Below, one piece after another: positions 1 to 22,842 of a stretch of 22,842 bases of DNA. Every line of letters starts with the position of its first letter. Positions within the stretch are counted from its first letter, which is position 1. The notes beneath the pieces are model-generated. The model did not search any database. It was not told the origin of the DNA and saw only the letters and a list, made by a program, of their open reading frames with translations. Origin of the DNA: Spirulina sp. (GTDB taxonomy: Bacteria; Cyanobacteriota; Cyanobacteriia; Phormidesmidales; Phormidesmidaceae); NCBI GenBank assembly GCA_044070495.1, contig JBIPSI010000050.1, positions 1 to 22,842 on the forward strand, in the 5' to 3' direction. A program made the position numbers and the translations under genes.

Positions 1-11
1 ACTGTTCAGAT

Positions 12-218
12 ATGCCTAGCCTCATCACCGACACCCTAACCTTCGGCGGCAACTGCGAACCCGACGCCACGCCGCCCCCCGGCTGGCAAATCACCGCAGC
101 CGACCCGCCCCCCGGAATGGCTTCCCCTCAGTGGGATGCAGTCGCCCAGCAGTGGATCGAAGGCCCCCAGCCCCCGCCCTATGCCCCGCCCCTGTCCTTG
201 TCAGACCTAATCCCATGA
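12..218 (+). CDS. Small Pro-rich hypothetical protein, possibly virion-associated
   Basis: 68 aa ORF with PQWDAVAQQWIE motif. Its stop overlaps the next start (ATGA at 215-218). Confidence 0.5.
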   Translation: MPSLITDTLTFGGNCEPDATPPPGWQITAADPPPGMASPQWDAVAQQWIEGPQPPPYAPPLSLSDLIP

Positions 219-367
219 ATCGCCCCATCCGCCCCGCCATCGCTATCGCCGCCGCTGTCGCCCTTGGCCTACTCGTTCTAGCCGCTGGTTCGCGGGATGA
301 ATTTCCAAGGCGTCGTCAAGGAGGAGGTAGCCAGAGTGCCAACCCTATCGCTCTACTTTCCGCCTGA
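215..367 (+). CDS. Small membrane or secreted peptide (50 aa)
   Basis: ATG overlaps the previous TGA. Basic N-terminus plus hydrophobic run AIAIAAAVALGLLVLAAG. The 3' end overlaps the FHA gene. Confidence 0.4.
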   Translation: MNRPIRPAIAIAAAVALGLLVLAAGSRDEFPRRRQGGGSQSANPIALLSA

Positions 368-908
368 GTTCCCCGACCCGTCACTCGCGGATCACACCCA
401 TCGCCTGACCATCCCCCGACCAGACGCCGACTCTGATGAGTTCCTGGTCGGACGCTCCCCAGAGTTAGACCTAACCTTAGCCGTCAAGACCGTTAGCCGT
501 CGCCATCTGGCCATCACCTACAGCTACGCCGCCGACCGCTGGGCCATTCAGGATCTCAAATCCACCGGGGGCACTTGGCTGAACGACCAGGCCCTCACCC
601 CCTATAACTGGCACTCCCTCACCATCGGAGACAAGATCCACCTCAGCAGCAACCCGCCGATCCGAGTTGTTGAGGATGAGAACGACACCATCAACGACGA
701 CGGCCCCACCACCGTCGTAAGCCTCACGCCCCTGGCCACCATTCCCCCAGCTCCCCTCGACGGCGACCGCTACGACGACGCCCTCTACCTGTTTGTCCAG
801 TGGTTCACCACCGGCACCACCTTCTGGGGAAAAACAGCCCGGTTCCTGCTGCTGGTGCTGCTGGCCACCATCGCCGCCGTTGCGGTGGCCGCCGTCGTCA
901 TCCACTAG
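297..908 (+). CDS. FHA domain protein with C-terminal transmembrane helix
   Basis: FHA motifs VGRS, VSRRH and DLKSTGGTWLND; hydrophobic tail FLLLVLLATIAAVAVAAVV. An alternative GTG start at 336 follows a GGAGG RBS. Confidence 0.85.
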   Translation: MNFQGVVKEEVARVPTLSLYFPPEFPDPSLADHTHRLTIPRPDADSDEFLVGRSPELDLTLAVKTVSRRHLAITYSYAADRWAIQDLKSTGGTWLNDQALTPYNWHSLTIGDKIHLSSNPPIRVVEDENDTINDDGPTTVVSLTPLATIPPAPLDGDRYDDALYLFVQWFTTGTTFWGKTARFLLLVLLATIAAVAVAAVVIH

Positions 909-916
909 CCCAAAAC

Positions 917-948
917 AAAACCCCCAGGGCCTTGGCCGCTGAGGGTTC
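917..948. terminator. Probable hairpin terminator between convergent genes
   Basis: Imperfect stem aacccc-ag-ggcc / ggcc-g-ctga-gggtt preceded by an A-run. Confidence 0.45.
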
Positions 949-960
949 GCTGAGTAGTAG

Positions 961-1965
961 TCACAGCCTAATTTTAGGTCGTGGCGTCAGCCGTCGCCAT
1001 CCATCAATCACCGCCAAAATCTCAGCATGGGGCCGAAAATCCACATACACCGCCCGTTCTACAATCGCCGCCCGTTCCCTCACCAGCCCCCGCAGCATAG
1101 AGCCACCTGGAATGTGGCGGACGCCATCAATGCGATCACCATGGCCCCACCGATACCGGAAGTAACGCCTTCCCTTGCTGGGATATTCGCTGGCCTCATG
1201 CCAAAACCGCCCACCCTGGCAAAACGCCTCATGAAGCGCGTCGTCCTCATCCCCTGGATCGGCATCCTCCCACCAACGAGATTCCGCACTGTCGGACACA
1301 TTTCCCTTAGGAAAATCTTGGCCCTGAATCTCGCCCCCGCAATCGCTGAAGCGGCGAGATTCCGCACTGTCGGACACGCTTCCTAGTGGCTCCACCTCTC
1401 CGCCATCCCAAAACCATAGACCTTGGTTCCCCCGACAGTAGATCGGCTTAATGGGCTGAACGTCTGACAGCACCCACCCCCAGGGGCCAAAGAACCATGG
1501 CGAGTTATGCGTCTGAGTGTTGCCCCGAAAAGTGACCAGCGCGACGATAGCCCCTGCTGGGTGTTCGCTTTCCGGCGGCACATCTCCCAGGCCGCTTGTC
1601 CTGATCCACTCCGCCCCCTCCGAGTCCCACCCCTTCCCGGCATGGATCGCAATCACTGTCCCGACCTCTCTCGGTAGCGCCCAGGTTCTGTTCTCGACAT
1701 CCTTCCCCAGGTGGGTGATCGCGTAGGCCCAGGGCCGCTTTAGGGTAACGGTGGGCGTTCGTTCAACATGTGACAGTTGCCCTCTGCTCGCGTGGCTACA
1801 GCTCGGAGCTGTGCGCGGCTGATCGTCGCCCGAAACCCTTGCTATTGCGTTGTTGTCGGAAAGCCCCCCTCGGCTAACGACGTTGTGACAGTTGCCCCCG
1901 CACTCTAGGCGGCAATAGTAGCCGCTGGGGTGGTCTAGGCTGGGCACCAAGTTAGGGCACATCAT
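961..1965 (-). CDS. ASCH (PUA-like) domain protein with an additional C-terminal basic domain
   Basis: ASCH signature TLKRPWAYAI..GKDVENRTW..IAIHAGK..GAIVALV..RGNQGLW; C-terminal RYFRYRW..HIPGG segment. Confidence 0.85.
   Translation of the reverse strand: MMCPNLVPSLDHPSGYYCRLECGGNCHNVVSRGGLSDNNAIARVSGDDQPRTAPSCSHASRGQLSHVERTPTVTLKRPWAYAITHLGKDVENRTWALPREVGTVIAIHAGKGWDSEGAEWIRTSGLGDVPPESEHPAGAIVALVTFRGNTQTHNSPWFFGPWGWVLSDVQPIKPIYCRGNQGLWFWDGGEVEPLGSVSDSAESRRFSDCGGEIQGQDFPKGNVSDSAESRWWEDADPGDEDDALHEAFCQGGRFWHEASEYPSKGRRYFRYRWGHGDRIDGVRHIPGGSMLRGLVRERAAIVERAVYVDFRPHAEILAVIDGWRRLTPRPKIRL
1277..1377. repeat. 23-bp exact direct repeat inside the ASCH gene
   Basis: cgagattccgcactgtcggacac at 1277-1299 and 1355-1377 (VSDSAESR twice). 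Confidence 0.9.
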
Positions 1966-2200
1966 CGGTCAAGCCTTCCACAATCAAGGACAGAAAGTAG
2001 TTTCGGGCTGGTGCTGGCCACCGCCGCACCATGCTGAGCACCTGATGCGCATTGAGTCGCACCGCTAGCGCCTGTTGGTCGGCCTTACTCAGGCCGTGGG
2101 CCTCCAGTTCCGCCAAGATGGCATCTACGAGATGGTCAACATCATCACCACCTCGGTGCTCTGGCTGTTCGATTAGGTCTAAAAGGTTAAGTTGCGTCAT
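1952..2200 (-). CDS. Hypothetical protein (82 aa)
   Basis: ORF overlaps the ASCH start, suggesting an operon; helical composition. Confidence 0.6.
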   Translation of the reverse strand: MTQLNLLDLIEQPEHRGGDDVDHLVDAILAELEAHGLSKADQQALAVRLNAHQVLSMVRRWPAPARNYFLSLIVEGLTDDVP

Positions 2201-2239
2201 GACTGGGCACTTTAAATTTGCTGAGTTTGGTTGCTAATC

Positions 2240-2638
2240 ATGCGTGTTCATCCGATCTGGTATTTGGTGGGGTTCTCCCTATTCATTGGGGTCGCCAATA
2301 AGGTTTTGGAGAGTCCCCAGGGCGCGGCCCCCGCCGCCGCTGGTGGCAGCTCTGGGGACTACGCCACCGAGGTGGCCAAGATGATCACCGAGGTAACCAA
2401 TATCGACGCCCAAGGGGAGATGGAAGCTCGCCACTACTACGAAGAAACCATCCTGGGCCTAGATGCTTACTGCTCCGAGAATGTGGGGATGGTTGTAAGG
2501 CTTGCCGCCGTCGAAGTGGATAGGAGGGGTGATTCAGGCGTTCAGTTCGCGCTACTAGATGAGCTTGACGTAGTCCTAACCATGGCTGAAGACGCCCCCG
2601 TGCGCCCCACCCCCTGCGAACCACTGATAGGCCAGTAG
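2240..2638 (+). CDS. Hypothetical N-terminally membrane-anchored acidic protein
   Basis: ATG at 2240, hydrophobic IWYLVGFSLFIGVA segment, followed by a strong hairpin. Confidence 0.6.
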   Translation: MRVHPIWYLVGFSLFIGVANKVLESPQGAAPAAAGGSSGDYATEVAKMITEVTNIDAQGEMEARHYYEETILGLDAYCSENVGMVVRLAAVEVDRRGDSGVQFALLDELDVVLTMAEDAPVRPTPCEPLIGQ

Positions 2639-2656
2639 CCCACCACCACGCCAAAG

Positions 2657-2692
2657 CAAACCCCCAGAGATGCGATCACCTCTGGGGGTTTG
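2657..2692. terminator. Bidirectional intrinsic terminator
   Basis: 13-bp stem caaacccccagag / ctctgggggtttg between convergent ORFs. Confidence 0.8.
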
Positions 2693-2701
2693 TTGTGTTG
2701 G

Positions 2702-3037
2702 TTATTCGCCGCCTAGTTGAGACCTCAGCTCCTCCAACTCCTTGAGTGAGGTTGTGTGCTTTTCAACTTCGCGTTCATACCAGCGCACGCACTCCTCGAC
2801 TTCTACCAGCTTCTCTTGCTCTTGCTTGATTAGCTGGTCAACGATTTTCCCAAGACGTCTGGCTGAGTCCTGGGAGACTCTGTCGATGATGGCTTGTACC
2901 AATCCTTCATAGTCTCCAAAAGCTCCGAGAGGGACTTCGCCCCCACCTCCTGCTTCACTTTCTCCATGAAGTCCCTGGCCTCGTTGCTCACGGTCAAGTT
3001 CAGTCGCGGTTTCTGTGCCATTCTCAACCTTCTCCAT
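2702..3037 (-). CDS. Coiled-coil hypothetical protein (111 aa)
   Basis: ATG at 3037; heptad-rich C-terminal half IVDQLIKQEQEKLVEVEECVRWYEREVEKHTTSLKELEELRSQL. Confidence 0.6.
   Translation of the reverse strand: MEKVENGTETATELDREQRGQGLHGESEAGGGGEVPLGAFGDYEGLVQAIIDRVSQDSARRLGKIVDQLIKQEQEKLVEVEECVRWYEREVEKHTTSLKELEELRSQLGGE
2830..3021 (-). CDS. Ribbon-helix-helix (CopG/Arc-like) DNA-binding protein, nested in a different frame of the coiled-coil gene
   Basis: MAQKPRLNLTVSNEARDFMEKVKQEVGAKSLSELLETM has the alternating beta-strand, helix and G-x-x-S-L-S-E-L-L helix pattern. Confidence 0.7.
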   Translation of the reverse strand: MAQKPRLNLTVSNEARDFMEKVKQEVGAKSLSELLETMKDWYKPSSTESPRTQPDVLGKSLTS

Positions 3038-3063
3038 AGATCGTCTCCATGATTGTACGCCGC

Positions 3064-3126
3064 TTATACGCATAACTTATTAATGCGCATAACTATGCGT
3101 ATTGTAGTTCAAGTTATGCGTATAAT
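3064..3126. promoter_or_regulatory. Divergent promoter/operator array
   Basis: Perfect 15-bp inverted repeat ttatacgcataactt (3064-3078) / aagttatgcgtataa (3111-3125), a central near-palindrome aatgcgcata-ac-tatgcgtatt, and TATAAT at 3121-3126. Confidence 0.8.
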
Positions 3127-3299
3127 GCACGCATGGATAACCAACTCCACAACGGGGCCTCACTCCCCCGTTTTCCTGGCTGGCCCTAGGGGTGTATGGG
3201 CGTTCATGCAGGCGGTGCAATTCCGCCCAGGCCAAAGTGACTGACTAGCGTCAAACGTAGTGACCGGGGAACGCCCCCCGGATTTTCTTAGGAGAAAAA

Positions 3300-3629
3300 G
3301 TGACCCAAGAAGAGTTGATGACCCTACGCCTACCCCGCCTACAGCAGATTGCCGAGCGCCACGGCATTCAATGGGCCAATGCCCACGGGAGAGGCCGCCA
3401 TCTACGCAAACCTGAGCTGGTAGAACTGCTGGCCCCCGTCTTAGAGGCTAAAACGCCCCCGCCCCTGCCCCAGAAAGTCTATCGAGTGGTGAACCGCGCC
3501 ACGGGAAAAGAGGTCGGGCGTTTTCCATCCATCTCCTACGCCGGTCTATTTTGGCGGGGCCTGTGCCAAGCCAACGGATCAGCAGAAGCCATCAAAATGA
3601 AATTTCGCATGGAGGAAACCTGGGAATGA
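3300..3629 (+). CDS. Hypothetical protein with Rho_N/HeH-like N-terminal motif
   Basis: AGGAG RBS before GTG; LRLPRLQQIAERHGI...LRKPELVELL pattern. Confidence 0.65.
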   Translation: MTQEELMTLRLPRLQQIAERHGIQWANAHGRGRHLRKPELVELLAPVLEAKTPPPLPQKVYRVVNRATGKEVGRFPSISYAGLFWRGLCQANGSAEAIKMKFRMEETWE

Positions 3630-3829
3630 CCGCCGAAGCCGCCCACTACTGCACCCCCAAAGACCGAGTGACGAGCGAAATCCTCAAGGAAATGCGCTCC
3701 ATGAGCTTGCCCGACCTGGTCTATCTTCGCGACCAAGCCCAGGCCCTCAACCAAGCGCGTCTAGAGCAAGAAGCCGCCCTCAACGCCCGTTACCCCCTCA
3801 CCACCGGAACCGATGACCATGGCGAGTAA
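3626..3829 (+). CDS. Hypothetical protein (67 aa)
   Basis: GGAGG RBS; ATGA overlap with the upstream stop. Confidence 0.6.
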   Translation: MTAEAAHYCTPKDRVTSEILKEMRSMSLPDLVYLRDQAQALNQARLEQEAALNARYPLTTGTDDHGE

Positions 3830-4082
3830 CCAACAAGTTCCCGAACGCATCGCCCGCACCCTCGCCAAAGCTGCCTTTGTATCGGCTTACCTGGCTGACG
3901 AAGCAACCAGCGGCAGTACCGAGCATGTAGGGCAGAACCCAGAGGAGCTTATGGCCTCCTTGAATCACGTTGCCGAATGCCGCCTACTAGAGATGCCCCG
4001 TAGCGAGTATCTAGCCAACCTGCGCCGCTGGCTCTCGGCCTTCGATTGTGAACTCTTAGAGGAAACCCCCGATGCCGAATGA
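3813..4082 (+). CDS. Hypothetical protein
   Basis: ORF overlaps both neighbours in the same operon. Confidence 0.6.
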   Translation: MTMASNQQVPERIARTLAKAAFVSAYLADEATSGSTEHVGQNPEELMASLNHVAECRLLEMPRSEYLANLRRWLSAFDCELLEETPDAE

Positions 4083-4404
4083 AACCCCCACCATCCAACC
4101 CTGGGCCATGGACGCCCTACGAGAGCTGATTGATATCGCAGGGCTGCTCAACGATGAACAGTTCATTTCCCACGAAGAAGACCCCCGAATCACCGTCATC
4201 GACCGCCTAACCCAGCTCATCCAGTCCTTAGTGATTGACCGTGAACCCCTAGACCCCCAGGACGATGATCAGCGAGTCTTCTTTATGCCAGAGGACGGAG
4301 TCCCTGTCGAGGTTCGCTCCAGTGAGAACCCCTACGAGAGTGAACGAAACCTAGACCGGATTGACGACGACGAGTACGGCAACCCCCGCCTGCTCCCTTA
4401 CTAA
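4072..4404 (+). CDS. Acidic hypothetical protein (110 aa)
   Basis: GAGG RBS; overlaps the upstream ORF; its stop abuts the ribozyme. Confidence 0.65.
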   Translation: MPNETPTIQPWAMDALRELIDIAGLLNDEQFISHEEDPRITVIDRLTQLIQSLVIDREPLDPQDDDQRVFFMPEDGVPVEVRSSENPYESERNLDRIDDDEYGNPRLLPY

Positions 4405-4466
4405 CCCGCCTGACGATGGCCCCTGCCAAGGGCCGAAACATTCCCCACCGTGGGGAGTGTCGCGGG
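4405..4466 (+). ncRNA. Type I hammerhead ribozyme
   Basis: Stem I cccgc (4405-4409) / gcggg (4462-4466). Core CUGACGA (4410-4416) plus one extra U. Stem II ggccc / gggcc. GAAA at 4435-4438. Stem III acauucccca / uggggagugu. GUC cleavage triplet at 4459-4461. Confidence 0.92.
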
Positions 4467-4650
4467 AGGCTTGCACGGCCCCGGATTCCAACCCCGTGGC
4501 CCTAAGCTTCTTCGCCTCCGGGCTGGGGCTGTTATACCGATGCGTTTTTACGCCCAAAGAATGTTGCCATACAGCCCGGAGCCACCACTAGGCGGAATCA
4601 TCTCCAGTCTGAGAGCGACGTGCTAAACGGTGGCCCAGCCCCGGAGCTTA
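4462..4650 (+). ncRNA. Putative IS110 bridge RNA
   Basis: Non-coding segment just upstream of an IS110 recombinase. It has a 5' hairpin (4474-4498), an outer stem (4516-4525 / 4636-4646) and two arms (4526-4577, 4581-4634), each with a large internal loop capped by a small hairpin. Confidence 0.75.
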
Positions 4651-4677
4651 TGTAATTGCGACACAGGACGTTGATCT

Positions 4678-5880
4678 ATGCCTTCAATCATCGGGGTAGA
4701 GGTTGCTAAGACCTCTGTGCTTTGCTGCAATCTGGATGACGGTCTACCCGTTCCTAGCGACCCAGCGCAGTTTGCCCATTCCTATGAACCCATCCCCATC
4801 CTGGCCAACAGCGACGGTGTGAAACGCCTGTTGGAGCTGGGAGATCACTATGTCATTGAACCTACGGGGGATTATTCCCGCGTTTGGATCAACACCCTCA
4901 GGGCCAACGGTAAGACCGTCCTTAGGGTCAATCCCAAACGGGTATCTGCCCTGAAGCAGTATCACGGCGTAGCCAGTAAGACCGACCGATACGACGCCGC
5001 ATTCCTGGCCATCTATGGAGCCATGAACCACGGCAAGCCCAGCGCATTCCTTAGCGACTACGCCGAGGAACTGAGGGAAGCCACAGCCCAACATCAATTC
5101 CTTAGCCGCCAGACGGGGAACCTTCAGCGCCGCCTATGGCAACTCCTAAGCCACGAATGGCCGGAAGCCTGCCGCGTGGCATCAGGGAAGAAACCCCAGC
5201 AGCGCCGCCTATGGCTTAGTCCCCATCCTCCGGCGCTGTGGCGGTTTGTCGCTGGTGAGTCGGTCAGGAACCAGAAAAGCAGGGAAGCCAGTCTAGACGA
5301 AACCATTGGCTCCGGCCTCTCCGTGATGAGTAAGACCCTGGCCGCGCAGGTCTGCGAGATGGAGCGGCAACAGTTCCTTATTGAAGAGCACATCGCCGCA
5401 ATCCTCGAAGTCAGCGAGTTTAAGCCCTATCACACCGTATTTGATCGGTTCGGCTTCGGCGAGATGACGCGGGCCGTCCTGCTGAGCCGCATCTACCCCT
5501 TTGATCGCTTCCTAGGCCCAGACGGTAAGCCCCGCAGGGAGAAGCGCCCTAGTTCCAAGACAGAAGGGCGCTTCCATCGCCGTGATCGCTCCCTGGGAGC
5601 CTTCCGTATGGCCCTGGGCAATGGAACCCGCGTCTATCAGTCAGGGCAAGACATGAAGCGTCGCGCCGCTGGTAGTCAGCTAACCCGAACGGCGCTGTAT
5701 CTCCATGTGGGGACAAAGATTTGCATGGCCAGCGCCAGAAACCTCGCCATGCCCCCCAAACTTCGCGCCCATGCTGACTACCATCAATCCCTCGCAGGGG
5801 TGCCCCACAAGCAGGCCGTCAGTAAAACCATGAGCCGAATCGTCAAAGACCTATACAGGGAGTTGCTGGCCACCCTGTAA
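4678..5880 (+). CDS. IS110-family (Piv/MooV-like) recombinase/transposase
   Basis: RuvC-like motifs IIGVEVAK, VIEPTG, VNP and KTDRYDA; C-terminal Tnp domain LG..YQSG (Ser322)..GS..RTALY. Confidence 0.9.
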   Translation: MPSIIGVEVAKTSVLCCNLDDGLPVPSDPAQFAHSYEPIPILANSDGVKRLLELGDHYVIEPTGDYSRVWINTLRANGKTVLRVNPKRVSALKQYHGVASKTDRYDAAFLAIYGAMNHGKPSAFLSDYAEELREATAQHQFLSRQTGNLQRRLWQLLSHEWPEACRVASGKKPQQRRLWLSPHPPALWRFVAGESVRNQKSREASLDETIGSGLSVMSKTLAAQVCEMERQQFLIEEHIAAILEVSEFKPYHTVFDRFGFGEMTRAVLLSRIYPFDRFLGPDGKPRREKRPSSKTEGRFHRRDRSLGAFRMALGNGTRVYQSGQDMKRRAAGSQLTRTALYLHVGTKICMASARNLAMPPKLRAHADYHQSLAGVPHKQAVSKTMSRIVKDLYRELLATL

Positions 5881-5902
5881 AGCCTCCTGAGATGACCCCG
5901 CG

Positions 5903-5929
5903 CCCCCGCTCTGTCGGGGGTCTTTTTTT
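5903..5929 (+). terminator. Intrinsic terminator after the recombinase
   Basis: cccccg / cggggg stem followed by tcttttttt. Confidence 0.8.
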
Positions 5930-5936
5930 GGCCGCG

Positions 5937-6027
5937 CTTATACCGATCCCTTCGTTCGTGCTGCACTCTGATCGCTAGTGTGGGTAGCGAAATCTTCGTG
6001 CAGCACTCACTACGGAATCGGTATAAG
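5937..6027. repeat. 91-bp imperfect palindrome with CTTATACCGAT termini
   Basis: cttataccgat (5937-5947) / atcggtataag (6017-6027); gtgctgcac / gtgcagcac; cgcta / tagcg. Confidence 0.9.
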
Positions 6028-6056
6028 GTAGGTTAAGGCGCTTTAGGAGTCTACCG

Positions 6057-6833
6057 ATGTCAGATGTCGCGCTATCGCCAAGTCCTCGTTCGGCAAGCCC
6101 CGCCCTCGATTTGGAGGCGGTGAATCGGCAGTGGGCCGATGCCGATGCGAGCCGCCTGGTGCAGTGGGGCTACGACACCTTTGGCGAGGGGCTAGTCCTC
6201 AGTACCAGTTTTGGCATTCAGTCGGCGGTGATGCTGCATTTGGTGACCCAGGTGGTGCCCCAAATTCCCGTCATTTGGGTGGATACAGGCTATCTGCCGG
6301 TGGAGACCTACCGCTTTGCCGAAGAACTCACTGAACGCCTACACCTGAACCTGAAGGTGTATCAATCCTCCCTTAGCCCCGCCCGCATGGAAGCGATCTA
6401 CGGTCGGCTGTGGGAGCACAACGATGTGGAATCCTTCAATCGCTACGACTACATCCGCAAGGTGGAACCCATGCAGCGGGCCTTGACGGAACTGGGGGCG
6501 ACCGCATGGCTAGCGGGCCTCCGGGCCGACCAAACCGAGCACCGCCGCACCCTAGAACGCATTGGGCTTCAGGGCGGACGCTACAAGCTAATGCCCATCC
6601 TCAAGTGGACCTCTAAGCAGGTCTATCAATACCTCGTAGCCCACGATTTGCCCTACCATCCCCTCTTCGACAAGGGCTACGTCACCGTGGGCGACTGGCA
6701 CTCTAGCCGTCCCATCAGCGCCAATGACAAAAACGAGCGCGACACCCGCTTCAAAGGGCTAAAGCAGGAATGCGGTCTGCACCTGCCCCAATCCCCCGAA
6801 GCCGCCGCTAGCCTGGATTCTAGTTCGTTGTAG
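6057..6833 (+). CDS. cysH: Phosphoadenylyl-sulfate (PAPS) reductase
   Basis: [29 protein letters not shown] and C-terminal ECGLH motifs. Confidence 0.95.
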
Positions 6834-7760: not shown

Positions 7761-7811
7761 AAGCCTGTCTTTGCGTAATCCAACCCATCAAGCATCCACG
7801 TCCAAGCTTTG

Positions 7812-7906
7812 CCCTCATCCCCCAGCCCCTTCTCCCTAGGGAGAAGGGGAGCCGGAAACGGTCTTCAAAGTCCCTCTCCCTTGGGGAGAGGGATTTAGGG
7901 TGAGGG
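7812..7906. repeat. REP-like cyanobacterial palindromic repeat
   Basis: ccctcatcccccagccccttctccc..gggagaagggg and tccctctccc..gggagagggatttagggtgaggg; a related copy lies at 9166-9230. Confidence 0.85.
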
Positions 7907-12174: not shown

Positions 12175-12206
12175 GCGAAGAAATAAGACATCGGTCATTG
12201 GGCTAA

Positions 12207-12337
12207 GAGGGCGTTTGAAAAGGGTTGCCCCAGGTGCGATTGGTCGCTAGATCGGTGCAAATCTACGGGATTTTTGACGACGGAGGCTGACCTCATCGGT
12301 ATAACTTGGGACGAGCTTCAGCTTTTCAAACGTCCTC
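12207..12337. mobile_element. MITE with IS5/IS1031-like ends
   Basis: TIR gagggcgtttgaaaag / cttttcaaacgtcctc (15/16), flanked by TAA on both sides (12204-12206, 12338-12340); no ORF. Confidence 0.75.
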
Positions 12338-12594
12338 TAAAGTCCTGTCATTTACCCAAACTCTATGGTTGACGGCTGTCCTAAAAAAGTAAAAAAATGA
12401 CGGGGCCAGAGATGGGGATGATTTGTGGTGCGCTCATCCGAATCCTATTGAGGGGTTAAGACCTAGGGAAGCTATCGAAACCTTCTATCGCTCGGCTACA
12501 AGTAGACAGAAAGGCCATACGGATGGGGACGAATCTGCACACATCGCAGCGTAATCCGGTATGGATTGCGCTGCCCTAGCCCAGCCGATATCTG

Positions 12595-19250: not shown

Positions 19251-20753
19251 ATGCTTCGTGAGTTTGATACCGATCTCCCAGACCAGGCCACCTCGGCGGC
19301 CAATGATCGCCCTGGCCTTGGCGAAACCGCCAACCCAGACCATCTCCTCCATTCAGACTCGACGCCGCCGTCGTCTACTCCAGCATCCACGCTTAATCTG
19401 GCCGCTCCATCTGACCCCGCCATCCCCCACCCCGCCCCCGATCCAAATCCGTCATCGGTGGATGAACCCCATGGCCCTGGGTTTGGGCGGGTGCTGAAAA
19501 ACCGAAATTTCCTCACCCTCTGGCTGGGCCAACTGTTTTCCCAACTGGCGGACAAGGTCTATCTGGTGCTAATGATTGCCATTATCTCCGCCCAGTTTGA
19601 TACCCCAGGCCAAAGCATTAGCGGCTGGGTATCGGCGGTGATGGTGGCCTTTACCATTCCGGCGGTGCTGTTTGGGGCGGCGGCGGGGGTGTTTGTGGAT
19701 CGCTGGCGTAAGCAGCCCGTGTTGGTGCTGTCGAACCTGCTGCGGGGGGGCTTGGTGTTGCTGCTGCCCCTGGGGTTGTGGCTGGCGGCGGATGGGGGAT
19801 TCCTGGCGGGTTGGCCCCTGGCCTTTTGGTTCCTGTTAACGGTCACCTTTGTGATATCCACCCTCACCCAGTTTTTTGCCCCGGCAGAGCAGGCGATTAT
19901 TCCTGTGATTGTGGCGGAGGGGGATTTGTTACCGGCCAACTCTCTCTACACCACCACCATGACCGCCTCAGTGATTGTGGGGTTTGCGGTGGGGGAACCG
20001 CTGCTGGCCCTCGCCGACCAACTGATGACCACCCTAGGCGTTACCAACAACGGCCCAGCGGTGCTGGTGGGGATGAGCTATCTGCTGGCGGGGCTGTGTT
20101 TGGCGTCCATCCGGCCCGGTGCTGAGACCCTGTCGGCGGGGCGCGACTGGTCGCAGTTTTGGCTCGATATCCGCGATGGGTTGAGTTATCTGAAGCACCA
20201 GGCCCAAGTGCGGGTGGCAATTTTGCAGTTGGTGCTGCTGTCCTGTGTGTTTGCGTCCCTGGCGGTGCTGGCGGTGCGCTTGGCGGAACTGATTCCGGCG
20301 ATTAAGGCCTCCCAGTTTGGGTTTTTGCTGGCCGCTGGTGGGGCGGGGCTGGCCCTGGGGGCGATTCTGGTGGGGCACTATGGTCAGCGGTTTCCTCGCC
20401 GCTACCTCAGTCTGTGGGGCACCCTGGGCATGGCCCTCAGCCTAGTTCTGCTAGCTTGGACCACCCAACAACTGTGGCTTTCCATCGGGCTGCTGACGGT
20501 GCTGGGCTTTGCTGGGGCGCTGGTGGGCATCCCCATGCAAACGCTAATTCAAGAAACCACCCCAGAGGATATGCGGGGCAAGGTGTTTGGGCTGCAAAAT
20601 AACCTGGTTAACATCGCCCTCACCCTGCCCCTGGCCCTCACCAGCCTGGTGGAAACGGCCCTGGGTTTGCCCTCCGTTTTTGTGGGTCTGGGGGCGGTGG
20701 TTGGTCTCGGTGGGGTGGCAACGTTATTCTATTACCGTTCATCTGAAGCCTAG
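19251..20753 (+). CDS. MFS transporter
   Basis: NRNFLTLWLGQLFSQLAD, GVFVDRW, FFAPAE and DMRGKVFG motifs; about 12 TM helices. Confidence 0.92.
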   Translation: MLREFDTDLPDQATSAANDRPGLGETANPDHLLHSDSTPPSSTPASTLNLAAPSDPAIPHPAPDPNPSSVDEPHGPGFGRVLKNRNFLTLWLGQLFSQLADKVYLVLMIAIISAQFDTPGQSISGWVSAVMVAFTIPAVLFGAAAGVFVDRWRKQPVLVLSNLLRGGLVLLLPLGLWLAADGGFLAGWPLAFWFLLTVTFVISTLTQFFAPAEQAIIPVIVAEGDLLPANSLYTTTMTASVIVGFAVGEPLLALADQLMTTLGVTNNGPAVLVGMSYLLAGLCLASIRPGAETLSAGRDWSQFWLDIRDGLSYLKHQAQVRVAILQLVLLSCVFASLAVLAVRLAELIPAIKASQFGFLLAAGGAGLALGAILVGHYGQRFPRRYLSLWGTLGMALSLVLLAWTTQQLWLSIGLLTVLGFAGALVGIPMQTLIQETTPEDMRGKVFGLQNNLVNIALTLPLALTSLVETALGLPSVFVGLGAVVGLGGVATLFYYRSSEA

Positions 20754-20763
20754 TACAAAAGCC

Positions 20764-21324
20764 CTAGAGCAGTTCCGCCGTCCGCCGCTTTTCTGCTTCG
20801 CTGGACTCCAGATAGGGTTGTAGGCTGGCCAGGGAGGCATGACCGCTCAGTTCCTGGATCCGCTTTGTCGAGATGCCTTTCTTCAGGAGATGGGTTAGGG
20901 CTCCCCTTCGAGTGCTGTAGGGGCTGTAGCCCGTCATCCCCAGTTGTGCAAAAGCCCTAGACAGGGCGTTGTAGTAGGCCCGATAGCTAAGATGGCCGCT
21001 TTGACTGTCGCTAGGGAACAACGGCCCCCAGGCTGGAGCGTCGTAGAGGCGCAGTTCAGCGGCTAGGCCAGTGGTCACCGGCGCCTCTCTTGTCCGCCGA
21101 TCCTTCCGTTTGGCCCTGGCGATCACAATGGTTTCCCGTGGCCGTCGTTTGTCGTTGGAGGTATAGCAGTCCTCAACGTCGAGTTGGAGGATCGCCCCTG
21201 GCCGCTCCGTGGTGTACCAGCACAGAGCGAAGGCCATGCGATAAGCCCCCCTCAAATTGTTAAGCACTGTGTTGAACTGAGTTTTTGTTAGCGGTTCGGC
21301 TTGTCCATTGCCGTGAATTTTCAT
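20764..21324 (-). CDS. Minimal tyrosine recombinase/integrase (catalytic domain only)
   Basis: TTERP (R), RKD (K), YSTRR (HxxR variant), SGH and LQPY (catalytic Tyr); 186 aa. Confidence 0.9.
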   Translation of the reverse strand: MKIHGNGQAEPLTKTQFNTVLNNLRGAYRMAFALCWYTTERPGAILQLDVEDCYTSNDKRRPRETIVIARAKRKDRRTREAPVTTGLAAELRLYDAPAWGPLFPSDSQSGHLSYRAYYNALSRAFAQLGMTGYSPYSTRRGALTHLLKKGISTKRIQELSGHASLASLQPYLESSEAEKRRTAELL

Positions 21325-21509
21325 TCCTGTTTCCCTCGAAAAACATTAAGAACAGGAACCGCAGCAACTTGAATATAATTCTCCAACGCCCAAAAGCCGC
21401 GCCGGTAGGCTGTTCTAGCTATTAATTCTAATGCTCGATTTGTAGATTTCCTGATCTTCTCTATCAAGATTTAATGCCGTAAAACTGGCATAGAGTTCCT
21501 GATTTTCCT

Positions 21510-21809
21510 ATGTCTGCATTTTCGACCACAGACCTCCCCGCCTCAATTGACAGTTTAGAGAAGCTGGTTGTCTGGGCCTGCGGGGCCTTCTACCAACTGC
21601 ATAAAAACGACCGTTACCAGGAAAGCGACGCTAGTCCGCTAATCCCTCTGGTCACCGCCCAAGATGGGTTGGCGGCTGACAAGACGGAGAGAATTATCTT
21701 CCGTCTGTCGATCCAACTGCTGGATACGTGGCGAGAAGATACGCTGCCCATGTTCGCCCAGGCCCTGGAGGCCAGTAACGCTGCCATCCCGTCTGGCTAT
21801 ACGCCCTAG
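21510..21809 (+). CDS. Hypothetical protein (99 aa), possible structural protein
   Basis: Clean ORF divergent from the integrase, 9 nt upstream of the next ORF. Confidence 0.7.
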   Translation: MSAFSTTDLPASIDSLEKLVVWACGAFYQLHKNDRYQESDASPLIPLVTAQDGLAADKTERIIFRLSIQLLDTWREDTLPMFAQALEASNAAIPSGYTP

Positions 21810-21818
21810 GGGTGAGTG

Positions 21819-22842
21819 ATGTCTGTTGCCCTCAAGTCGGCTAGCCCAACGGAGCTAGGCCAATCGATCAATAGCGGAGCCATTACCCGCCCTCCCACGG
21901 TGGGGAATATCGATCAGATCGCCATTCCCCAAACGGCGCAAACCTCCAACATCAGCCCTACGACCTACGTTAGGGAGTTCAACGTCCCAGGGCAAAACGT
22001 AACCGCCGAGGTTCCCTATCGGATGCCTGCCGATGTAGGGGATCCGCTTTATCGCCCACTAGCAGGCGACCCCCTAGGGCAGCCCTCCACTCGCAGCGGT
22101 CGCCCTGTTCGCAGTGCTGGCCTAGACGGAGGGCCGATCAACGCAGGCAGCGCACCCCCCAGGACGGCCCCCACTGGAGCTGCGCCCATAAATCGCAATG
22201 GCGGCGGCGGTGCATCTGCTGGAGGACGAACCAGCAACCCAGGTCGAGCGGTCAATCCTAGGGTTCCCGGAGGAATTGGCGGCGCTGCGTCTGTTGGTGT
22301 GGCGGTTGTCTTTGGCGGCGGCGGACTAGGAGAGCGAGTTGGGACGGGAATCGGCGGATACATCGGCTTCAATCAGGGCGCGGCGGCTGGGGCGGCGGCT
22401 GGGGCTTCCGCTGGGACGGTTACCCTTCCTGGCGTGGGCACGGTCGGCCTCGGCGGCGCTGGGGCTGTTGCTGGCGGGATTGCAGGCGCAGGCGTGGGCG
22501 GAGCTGTCGGGGGACGCATTGGCCGCGCCATAGACAACGCTATCCCAGATTTCCCCCTCCCCTGGCCATTCAACGGCGGCGGCGGCTACCCCAACCAAAC
22601 CGACCCCGACGCCATTCCCCCAGGGCCTGAAACGGAGTCTGGAAGCTCAAATAGTGGCTCAGTGTCGGGCGTAGTCTATCGGGCCGTCGGTGGGCACACC
22701 GATCAATTTGGCAGCTATGTGAACACCGTTTCCGCTCCATTGACTGGGCCTGTTTCGAGTGGTTCAAACGAGACATATCACGGGAATGGGAGACAGGCCG
22801 GAAAATTCCAGGTCTACACGGACTCAAACGGATTTACTGTTT
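21819..22842 (+). CDS. Gly/Pro-rich glycine-zipper protein, truncated by the window end (at least 341 aa)
   Basis: Manual translation from ATG 21819 is open to the end: MSVALKSASPTELGQ...GAAAGAAAGASAGTVTLPGVGTVGLGGAGAVAGGIAGAGVGGAVGGRIG...; not in the ORF track. Confidence 0.8.
   Translation, partial: MSVALKSASPTELGQSINSGAITRPPTVGNIDQIAIPQTAQTSNISPTTYVREFNVPGQNVTAEVPYRMPADVGDPLYRPLAGDPLGQPSTRSGRPVRSAGLDGGPINAGSAPPRTAPTGAAPINRNGGGGASAGGRTSNPGRAVNPRVPGGIGGAASVGVAVVFGGGGLGERVGTGIGGYIGFNQGAAAGAAAGASAGTVTLPGVGTVGLGGAGAVAGGIAGAGVGGAVGGRIGRAIDNAIPDFPLPWPFNGGGGYPNQTDPDAIPPGPETESGSSNSGSVSGVVYRAVGGHTDQFGSYVNTVSAPLTGPVSSGSNETYHGNGRQAGKFQVYTDSNGFTV

Follow-up and report, generated by a model that had tools for sequence, protein, structure and literature searches.

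An IS110-type cargo element of cyanobacteria with a bridge RNA directly preceded by a predicted hammerhead ribozyme

Results

A bridge recombinase gene and its surroundings

The window analysed here is a stretch of 22,842 nucleotides of Spirulina sp. DNA (contig JBIPSI010000050.1). It carries the recombinase end of one mobile element, element A, and, further downstream, the left end of a second, diverged copy in the same genome, element B, whose recombinase end lies on contig C56. In element A, a short ORF, a hammerhead motif, a non-coding RNA, the recombinase gene, a terminator-like hairpin and a palindrome follow one another up to the chromosomal junction.

The gene at 4678..5880 (plus strand) encodes a protein of 400 residues which Pfam, NCBIfam and fold matches place among the IS110-type DEDD (bridge) recombinases. 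It matched Pfam DEDD_Tnp_IS110 (E 5.5e-14) and NCBIfam NF051857 'IS110 family transposase' (288.8 bits over residues 4-397, for a cut-off of 180). PF01548, the N-terminal RuvC-like DEDD domain, was found in all five close proteins analysed (best E 1.4e-15), and Pfam Transposase_20 (PF02371) in none of the five. An AlphaFold model based on 37 homologs (pLDDT 93) had IS621 or ISCro4 chains as all of its 10 best PDB matches (E 5.5e-10 to 7e-9), aligned over 409-414 columns and with ~18% identity to IS621. The residues assigned are E8, E61, D103 and D106, with S322 as candidate catalytic serine; E61, D103, D106, S322 and G323 are invariant in the 37 homologs, and position 8, E in the window copy, is not. 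Despite the PF02371 miss, the modelled fold thus points to a C-terminal Tnp domain with a candidate catalytic serine, and S322 is the probable nucleophile. This assignment bears out an earlier note on the window, which from the letters and translated ORFs had described a bridge-RNA-like fold at 4516..4650.

Downstream of the gene is an intrinsic-terminator-like hairpin with a T run (5902..5930, plus strand). The recombinase clade was matched in 40 of 401 genomes sampled across the class, with close relatives (by contig titles) in Nodosilinea, Phormidium and Leptolyngbyaceae cyanobacteria; scans for further homologs yielded one locus in metagenomes and no relative in viral contigs.

A predicted type I hammerhead ribozyme upstream of the RNA

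Directly after the stop codon (4402-4404) of ORF 4072-4404 begins a motif (4405..4466, plus strand) with the core letters and three-way-junction fold of a type I hammerhead ribozyme, and with covariation in homologs. It reads CCCGC-CUGACGA-U-GGCCC(loop)GGGCC-GAA-ACAUUCCCCA(loop)UGGGGAGUGU-C, then GCGGG, and comprises helix I (4405-4409/4462-4466), CUGACGA (4410-4416) followed by an extra U (4417), helix II (4418-4422/4430-4434) followed by GAA (4435-4437), and helix III (4438-4447/4451-4460), with C17 at 4461. The three-way junction folds at -32.8 kcal/mol (z -3.2), and cleavage is predicted between 4461 and 4462.

A strict pattern detected a hammerhead 161-336 nt 5' of the ORF start in 26 of 40 cyanobacterial locus entries, among which two loci are listed twice (L012 = L047, L011 = L060) and one has only 149 nt of upstream sequence. 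We aligned 23 copies, having left out L015 for its long insert, L042 as a doubtful match and L047 as a duplicate. CTGA, GA and GAAAC are invariant in all 23, and the cleavage triplet is GTC in 20 and GTA in three. Paired cells amount to 86.9%, compared to 65% in shuffles, and double-change cells to 94, compared to 30, with none of 500 shuffles as high; the covariation score was 0.568, and at most 0.149 when the 3' partners were slid. Helix III is 98% paired with five of seven pairs doubly changed, as are five of the six pairs of helix II, where three of the 23 rows look partly unpaired at the extra U between A9 and the helix. With Rfam RF00163, two relatives scored 33.8 (L006) and 24.4 bits, the gathering score of 34 not being reached. 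The Rfam search of 3800-6400 (E up to 1) returned no match, and the window copy, which carries the extra U after A9, falls below the reporting limit. By comparison across the clade, the window motif is best read as a type I hammerhead with conserved core and three helices, helix I being open.

GCGG, the 3' strand of helix I, is reused in the basal stem of the 5' stem-loop domain of the predicted mature RNA (4462..4515, plus strand; -26.1 kcal/mol, z -2.8), and this domain recurs in the consensus folds of seven homologs. Since the helix I 3' strand is also the first strand of the stem-loop, cleavage and refolding would be coupled. Alternatively, the hammerhead may not make the 5' end of the RNA but end or destabilise the cargo mRNA, or gate expression of the recombinase, in keeping with its start one base after the upstream stop codon and with cleavage affecting both products. 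Yet it travels with the recombinase across different upstream genes (the 26 of 40 entries, and also G062, another genome with a recombinase gene of this kind preceded by a hammerhead), and its helix I 3' strand opens a conserved 5' stem-loop, so we consider the mRNA role on its own unlikely. Setting the RNA 5' end and acting on the upstream mRNA are not exclusive roles.

The RNA and its two arms

The RNA occupies 4462-4677, immediately 5' of the recombinase gene. The 5' domain is followed by loop 1 (4516..4581, plus strand), delimited by homolog comparison, uninterrupted sites and a left junction, in which a closing stem (4516-4525/4572-4581) encloses the left target guide UUAUACCGAU (4532-4541; its last two letters are the core AU), a hairpin (4542-4553), the right target guide AAGAAU (4557-4562) and, after it, the conserved GUUGCCAUAC (4563-4572). 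The second arm, loop 2 (4582..4650, plus strand), has a local stem (4581-4586/4629-4634) and, on its 3' strand, the putative left-donor guide AGAGCGACGU (4612-4621) and the conserved GUGCUAAAC (4620-4628); a 3'-terminal strand (4635-4647) is able to pair with 4516-4528. At 10-12, 6-7 and 10 nt, the guides are comparatively long. A similar motif follows each guide-bearing 3' strand, GUUGCCAUAC in loop 1 and (C)GUGCUAAAC in loop 2. The first five letters of GUUGCCAUAC are also the first five of the element left end (GTTGC), and the GUUGC of loop 1 does not track the left end where relatives' left ends differ.

The letters quoted in the earlier note are all in place: gggctgt (4526-4532) and acagccc (4571-4577), TATACCGAT (4533-4541), gcgt (4542-4545) and acgc (4550-4553), GAAT (4559-4562), gccacc (4581-4586) and ggtggc (4629-4634), CGGAATCAT (4593-4601), GCGACGTG (4615-4622), and GAATCGGTATA (6015-6025; reverse complement TATACCGATTC). 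The stems drawn from them fared unevenly in the window RNA and those of six close homologs. The arm 1 stem proposed at 4526-4532/4571-4577 is 71% paired, has only one of seven pairs changed on both sides, and includes two pairs that form in just two of the seven sequences; the register given above, 4516-4525/4572-4581, is 90% paired with four of ten pairs changed on both sides. The small hairpin of arm 1 was supported by the close-homolog comparison, and the outer stem is possible throughout, since the 5' strand of arm 1 can pair with the 3'-terminal strand in all seven RNAs (-14 to -25 kcal/mol), as judged by duplex energies because alignment registers differ between RNAs and preclude a column-wise count. 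The tandem GGGCUG of the window RNA allows the arm 1 stem and the outer stem simultaneously. In arm 2, no secondary structure is conserved among the seven RNAs, and the stem gccacc/ggtggc is found in the window and one relative (E5) and in no other. Comparison of homologs yielded variable guides and an arm 1 stem, in another register, and no conserved arm 2 fold. Taken alone, 4500-4680 has an unremarkable fold energy (z -1.24), and hence the RNA is supported by comparison and not by thermodynamics. What adjoins the recombinase gene is a non-coding RNA with a 5' stem-loop and guide-bearing internal loops, of which the 5' domain and arm 1 are supported, and, with the guide matches described below, we conclude that it is a true bridge RNA.

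Loop 1 reads both halves of the insertion site

Loop 1 acts as the target-binding loop. Read as its reverse complement, ATCGGTATAA (6017-6026) agrees with the 5' strand of the loop, UUAUACCGAU (4532-4541), at 10 of 10 positions, and the left flank AAGAAT agrees with the 3' strand, AAGAAU (4557-4562), at six of six; the 5' strand has the same sequence as the left target half plus core, and the 3' strand is complementary to core plus right half. The insertion site was recovered from relatives and from the other end of element A. Upstream of cysH, six of nine related loci examined have an uninterrupted site, ...AA(A/G)GA-AT-CGGTATAAGG (three exact, three with one or two base variations), the other three being too diverged for alignment, and homology of the uninterrupted relatives to the window begins at ~6014. 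The left junction of element A, on contig C47 of the window genome, is GCTGAAGA-AT-GTTGCTCT (in longer form, ...GGCTGAAGA-AT-GTTGCTCTAGTAAATTC). Together, the uninterrupted sites and the C47 junction indicate that the insertion site in the window genome is GCTGAAGA-AT-CGGTATAAGG, also written GCTGAAGA-AT-CGGTATAA. The core dinucleotide AT at the right junction, assigned from the six related genomes and C47, is at 6017..6018; the element ends at 6016 and the chromosome resumes at 6019, the boundary being ambiguous within GAAT (6015-6018). Insertion was precise at the core in both copies, AT in element A and AC within AAC in element B, with no other duplication. The earlier note's reading of the arm 1 guides against 6015-6025 accordingly picked out a true target-derived junction, made of left target half, AT core and element end, and its AT core is confirmed by the uninterrupted sites and the C47 left junction.

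The 10-mer TTATACCGAT occurs four times in the window (4532+, 5938+, 6017-, 12295-), where 0.01 occurrences are expected (100 shuffles). The longest match between RNA and right flank (reverse complement) is 8-12 nt in each of nine cognate pairs, compared to a mean of 6.0 and a maximum of 9 nt in 72 non-cognate pairs, and in a tenth element (G062) the left target guide matches its own flank at 10 of 10 positions. Ten related elements carry ten different left guides, 10- to 12-mers, each fitting its own chromosomal flank.

The right target guide, the 7 nt directly 5' of GUUGC, was compared with the left flank in the five elements whose left junction is known, and fits at 6/7 positions in A, 7/7 in B (second unit), 7/7 in E5, 6/7 in E12 (where the mismatch permits a U-G pair) and 7/7 in L020. 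For so short a guide, whole-RNA exact matches are at noise level (5-7 nt in non-cognate pairs too), and only the position-specific comparison is informative. Left junctions were located via homologous flank, element homology or a combined predicted pattern; a fuzzy search by the right guide alone found none. For L020, the 16-letter pattern predicted from its RNA hit a single site, with one mismatch, in the 6.7-Mb genome; this junction is on another contig, and the sequence that follows is collinear with the left part of E12. An uninterrupted site for the L020 right flank had no match in 52 other genomes of the genus. The target guides therefore match both halves of the insertion site, core included, on the left in 10/10 elements and on the right in 5/5 with a known left flank. 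In AC-core elements, guides end in GU (left target, left donor) or AC (right target, right donor).

A MITE-like repeat of 138 bp (window ~12203-12340; terminal inverted repeats AGAGGACGTTTGAAAAG, flanks CTnAG) contains TTATACCGAT at 12295-12304 on the minus strand, and ~36 of 42 genomic TTATACCGAT matches fall in its copies. The 11 letters of its TTATACCGATG recur in the bridge RNA, in the region of the left target guide. As a cognate target the repeat was rejected, because its right half, GAGG, mismatches the right guide; it is at most a half-site.

Loop 2 and recognition of the element ends

The segment AGAGCGACGU (4612-4621) on the 3' strand of loop 2 can pair, two G-T wobbles included, with ATGTTGCTCT, which comprises the core and the initial 8 nt of the element. 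Read across elements, RNA AGAGCGAC pairs with the left end GTTGCTCT in element A, AGAACGAC with GTTGTTCT in E5 and AGAAUGAC with GTTATTCT in E12, B and L020, RNA and left end having changed together in the latter two cases. The pairing is seen in 5/5 elements, with two compensated positions, in a covariation resting on three related haplotypes. In the two fully assembled relatives, the partner lies ~12 kb from loop 2. These complementarities suggest that a 10-nt segment of the loop 2 3' strand pairs with the core and the element left end, and that AGAGCGACGU is a left-donor guide in function, though on the 3' side of the arm. The target/donor assignment, left undecided in the earlier note, can hence be made in part: loop 1 takes the target, and the donor guide of loop 2 probably lies on the 3' strand (the 'GCGACGUG' side). 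The left 9-mer of loop 2, CGGAAUCAU, which had been taken for a guide, matches the right end in the window copy only (CGGAAU). The motif is near-constant, as GGCGG(U)AAUC, in relatives with differing right ends and is hence probably not a programmable guide. Tried as a guide in its own right, the loop 2 5' strand matched over 6-7 nt in A and in E5; the two matches lie on opposite sides of the junction, and chance alone would give such lengths.

Five relatives (B, L020, L036, L037 and L038; L037 and L038 by eye) have a duplicated, third guide unit. The first unit fits the element right end in L020 (UACGGAAC, 8/8), B (UUCGGAAC, 7/8 plus a wobble), L037 and L038 (7/8 each) and has no match in the altered end of L036; where the left flank is known (B, L020), the second unit is the guide for the right target half. 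A right-donor guide is thus seen in four of five three-unit RNAs, and, among the four two-unit RNAs compared with their right end, in the window copy only, as the near-constant CGGAAU.

The lack of a general right-donor guide in two-unit RNAs is one reason to ask if the RNA guides the target only, the donor ends being read by protein or through the imperfect terminal inverted repeats (TAGTGAGT-like) that are present; the loop 2 complementarity would then be a scaffold coincidence between two conserved stretches, the loop 2 3' segment and the left end, seen in just three haplotypes. What makes this improbable is 10-12 nt of contiguous Watson-Crick or G-U pairing at the same RNA position in 5/5 elements, with both variable positions compensated, whereas the GUUGC of loop 1, which could be an RNA-RNA partner instead, shows no co-variation; and in the three-unit RNAs of L020, B, L037 and L038 a separate unit fits the right end.

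The mobile unit is the whole cargo element

Neither copy in the window genome is assembled end to end. Of element A, which exceeds 8 kb, the window holds the right-hand 6 kb (1..6016, plus strand), while C47 (1-2150, reverse strand) and an unassembled gap account for the remainder. The chromosomal sequence on the left side of the site, as taken from an element-free relative, maps to C47, where it abuts new sequence that is 92% identical to window 20768-22163 and 98% identical over 22583-22842, and hence this part of the window is the left end of copy B. Element B (left junction plus left 2.1 kb, 20720..22842, plus strand) begins at ...GGTGGGGTGGC-AAC-GTTATTCTATTACC, with AAC at 20720-20722, and is absent from 7/7 related loci, where GGCAAC runs uninterrupted into CTGGTAT (GTAAC into CTGGTAT in two), exactly the two flanks of B joined. 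Two relatives have complete elements on one contig, which from core to core measure 11,864 bp (E5) and 14,661 bp (E12). The RNA is ~1.5 kb from the near end of the element and, in these two relatives, ~10 kb or more from the far end. Gene order 5' of the recombinase is syntenic in three other genomes. The mobile unit is therefore the whole cargo element and not a 1.5-kb IS.

The cargo is largely without family matches. Pfam, searched with 17 cargo ORFs, placed only window ORF 297-905 in a family, as a protein with an FHA domain (PF00498, E 6.5e-14) and a weaker Yop-YscD_cpl match. The 15 cargo ORFs of E5 gave no PHROG match, and a single sub-threshold hit was their only one in Pfam, and among the cargo ORFs scanned there was no other integrase or transposase. 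An ORF of 855 aa in a relative (L017:562-3126) had no Pfam or PHROG match.

The first ~140 bases of the window are identical to the last bases of C56 (reverse strand); the two contigs end at one and the same point of homology, which is also true of C47 and the window 3' end, and the assembly broke inside the two element copies. Window 7811-7906 is a ~95-bp repeat with dozens of copies on many contigs at 78-92% identity.

It might still be held that recombinase, RNA and right end form a small IS inside a larger island moved by other means. Window 1-4480 is ~88% identical to C56 in contrast to ~66% for the recombinase region, a module of ~1.56 kb (~4459 to 6016), and in G062 the DNA upstream of the same module is unrelated. 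This divergence and context do indicate module exchange. However, the far-left flank fits the right target guide, and the far left end pairs with the loop 2 guide, in 5/5 elements each; relatives' uninterrupted sites lack the whole element, for A and B alike; homology between copies continues through the hammerhead, with no second junction near it; and the scanned cargo ORFs offer no other integrase or transposase that could move an island. A small IS of this kind is thus a quite remote prospect. In L078 (G062:C5:291000-299000, reverse strand), a tandem duplication (~3480-4130) 3' of another copy of the module, itself preceded by unrelated upstream cargo, comprises the terminator end, the palindrome and ~400 bp of flanking gene.

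A palindrome completed by integration

At the right end of element A is a palindrome of ~90 bp (5937..6027), which has 30-nt arms with 83% complementarity and folds at -47.1 kcal/mol (z -5.3). At the outer end of the left arm (5938-5947), within the element, the left target half plus core is repeated in inverted orientation, and the outer end of the right arm (6017-6026) consists of the core and the chromosomal flank of the target. In nine of ten elements, an inverted left target half plus core was seen by eye ~70 bp inside the right end, fitting the left target guide of the RNA at 9-11 positions. With one arm internal and the other formed by element end and flank, the palindrome is complete only after integration. 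In E5 and L036 the two arms mirror each other perfectly, and this suggests that they pair within a strand in vivo. Perfect symmetry is found at ~11255-11345 of L017 and 3' of the ORF in L036; in L036 it does away with the core and the right-end sequence seen elsewhere, as though one arm were a copy made over the other.

An ordinary structured transposase mRNA leader, with 10-mer matches that are inherited repeats without guide function, would suit the unexceptional fold energy taken alone and has next to no chance of being right, contradicted as it is by the cognate/non-cognate matrix, by ten elements with ten different 10- to 12-mers that each fit their own flank, and by an internal inverted copy that matches too in 9/10 elements.

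Discussion

We propose, with a probability of roughly 0.86, that the window holds a cargo-carrying IS110 element whose recombinase and bridge RNA (4462-4677) pair target and joined ends and exchange strands at the AT core. Through base pairing by the RNA, the recombinase would engage both strands of the 14-bp site in the chromosome as well as the excised element at its joined ends, and recombination would follow the IS621 scheme. The upstream hammerhead is predicted to cut the RNA from a longer transcript, leaving a 5'-OH end at G4462, after which GCGG would re-pair into the 5' stem-loop. No sigma-70-like site was found in 3000-6100, where shuffles give 1.3, and since the RNA is internal to the cargo element (11.9 and 14.7 kb in relatives) no junction promoter can drive it.

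For the three-unit RNAs, we raise as a speculation that one strand of the 5' stem closes on either the right-donor unit or the duplicated right-target unit and thereby switches the direction of recombination. If so, the left guide with the right target guide would read an empty target, for insertion, and the left guide with the right-donor guide an integrated junction, for excision; together with a 5' end set by a hammerhead and a palindrome dependent on integration, this would make a bridge system regulated at the RNA level.

Bridge recombinases are in development as programmable genome-writing tools, for which the expression, trimming and direction of natural RNAs matter, and predicted ribozyme self-cleavage would be a natural way to release a bridge RNA from within an operon. 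Of the new features of the system, the hammerhead cap stands out most.

In IS621, the left target half reportedly adjoins the left end, which encodes the RNA, and the core is said to be CT. Compared to that reported arrangement the module here is inverted, with the left target half abutting the end 3' of the recombinase gene, the core is AT or AC, and the left-donor guide is on the 3' strand. Inverted module and 3'-strand left-donor guide both appear to be new, and apparently so are the third guide unit of some relatives and the internal inverted half-site that forms a ~90-bp palindrome with the flank.

Bridge RNAs (PMC11208160) and seekRNAs (PMC11187229) have already been described. IS621 and ISCro4 (PDB 8wt6, 9t56) share with this system a DEDD recombinase of the same fold and an upstream RNA in which a 5' stem-loop precedes guide-bearing internal loops. 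In the target loop of IS621, the 5' side pairs with one DNA strand (left half plus core, 8-9 nt) and the 3' side with the opposite strand (core plus right half, 4-7 nt), the core being included in each (Durrant 2024, PMC11208160); the geometry here is similar, with 10 and 6-7 nt, respectively. A second RNA segment, which in IS621 recognises the element's own ends, probably does so here too. They differ in sequence (~18% identity to IS621, and no Transposase_20 match here) and in that a hammerhead precedes the RNA here instead of the junction promoter described for IS621. As a recent survey required the Pfam pair PF01548 plus PF02371, which this clade lacks, such surveys have likely missed it.

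Cargo-bearing IS110 elements of up to ~100 kb have been described (Hu et al., bioRxiv 10.64898/2026.08.14.744561). Like the elements here, they have multi-gene cargo moved by an IS110 recombinase, guides that match the flanks and 3' non-coding regions homologous to flanking chromosomal DNA; unlike theirs, the cargo here is without family matches except for one FHA protein and is not plasmid or resistance DNA. The main text of that work has no mention of cyanobacteria, inverted repeats or palindromes. The ISPpu10 target stem-loop, a 'structural gate' (bioRxiv 10.64898/2026.03.19.712850), is likewise a hairpin-forming sequence adjoining an IS110 insertion site, but lies wholly in the target, whereas here one arm is in the element and the other is element end plus flank. 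Insertion and excision by IS621 are asymmetric (PMC13626964), and the third guide unit and integration-dependent palindrome bear on a bias of this type.

The window motif shares with Rfam RF00163 CUGANGA, GAAA, the GUC/GUA triplet, three helices and an open helix I, and is set apart by its position directly 5' of a bridge RNA and, in the window copy, by the extra U after A9. Within the full texts searched, no natural ribozyme adjoining an IS110 element or bridge RNA was found; matches on ribozyme plus IS110 were limited to engineered HDV ribozymes and one unrelated hammerhead candidate, and a hammerhead directly 5' of a bridge RNA hence appears to be a new arrangement. In the engineered constructs, an HDV ribozyme is placed 3' of bridge or seek RNAs (PMC11208160, PMC11187229), so that there, as predicted here, a self-cleaving ribozyme sets one end of the guide RNA, at the 3' end and in the laboratory in contrast to a natural hammerhead at the 5' end. 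This clade offers comparatively long guides, non-CT cores and a guide arrangement different from that of IS621.
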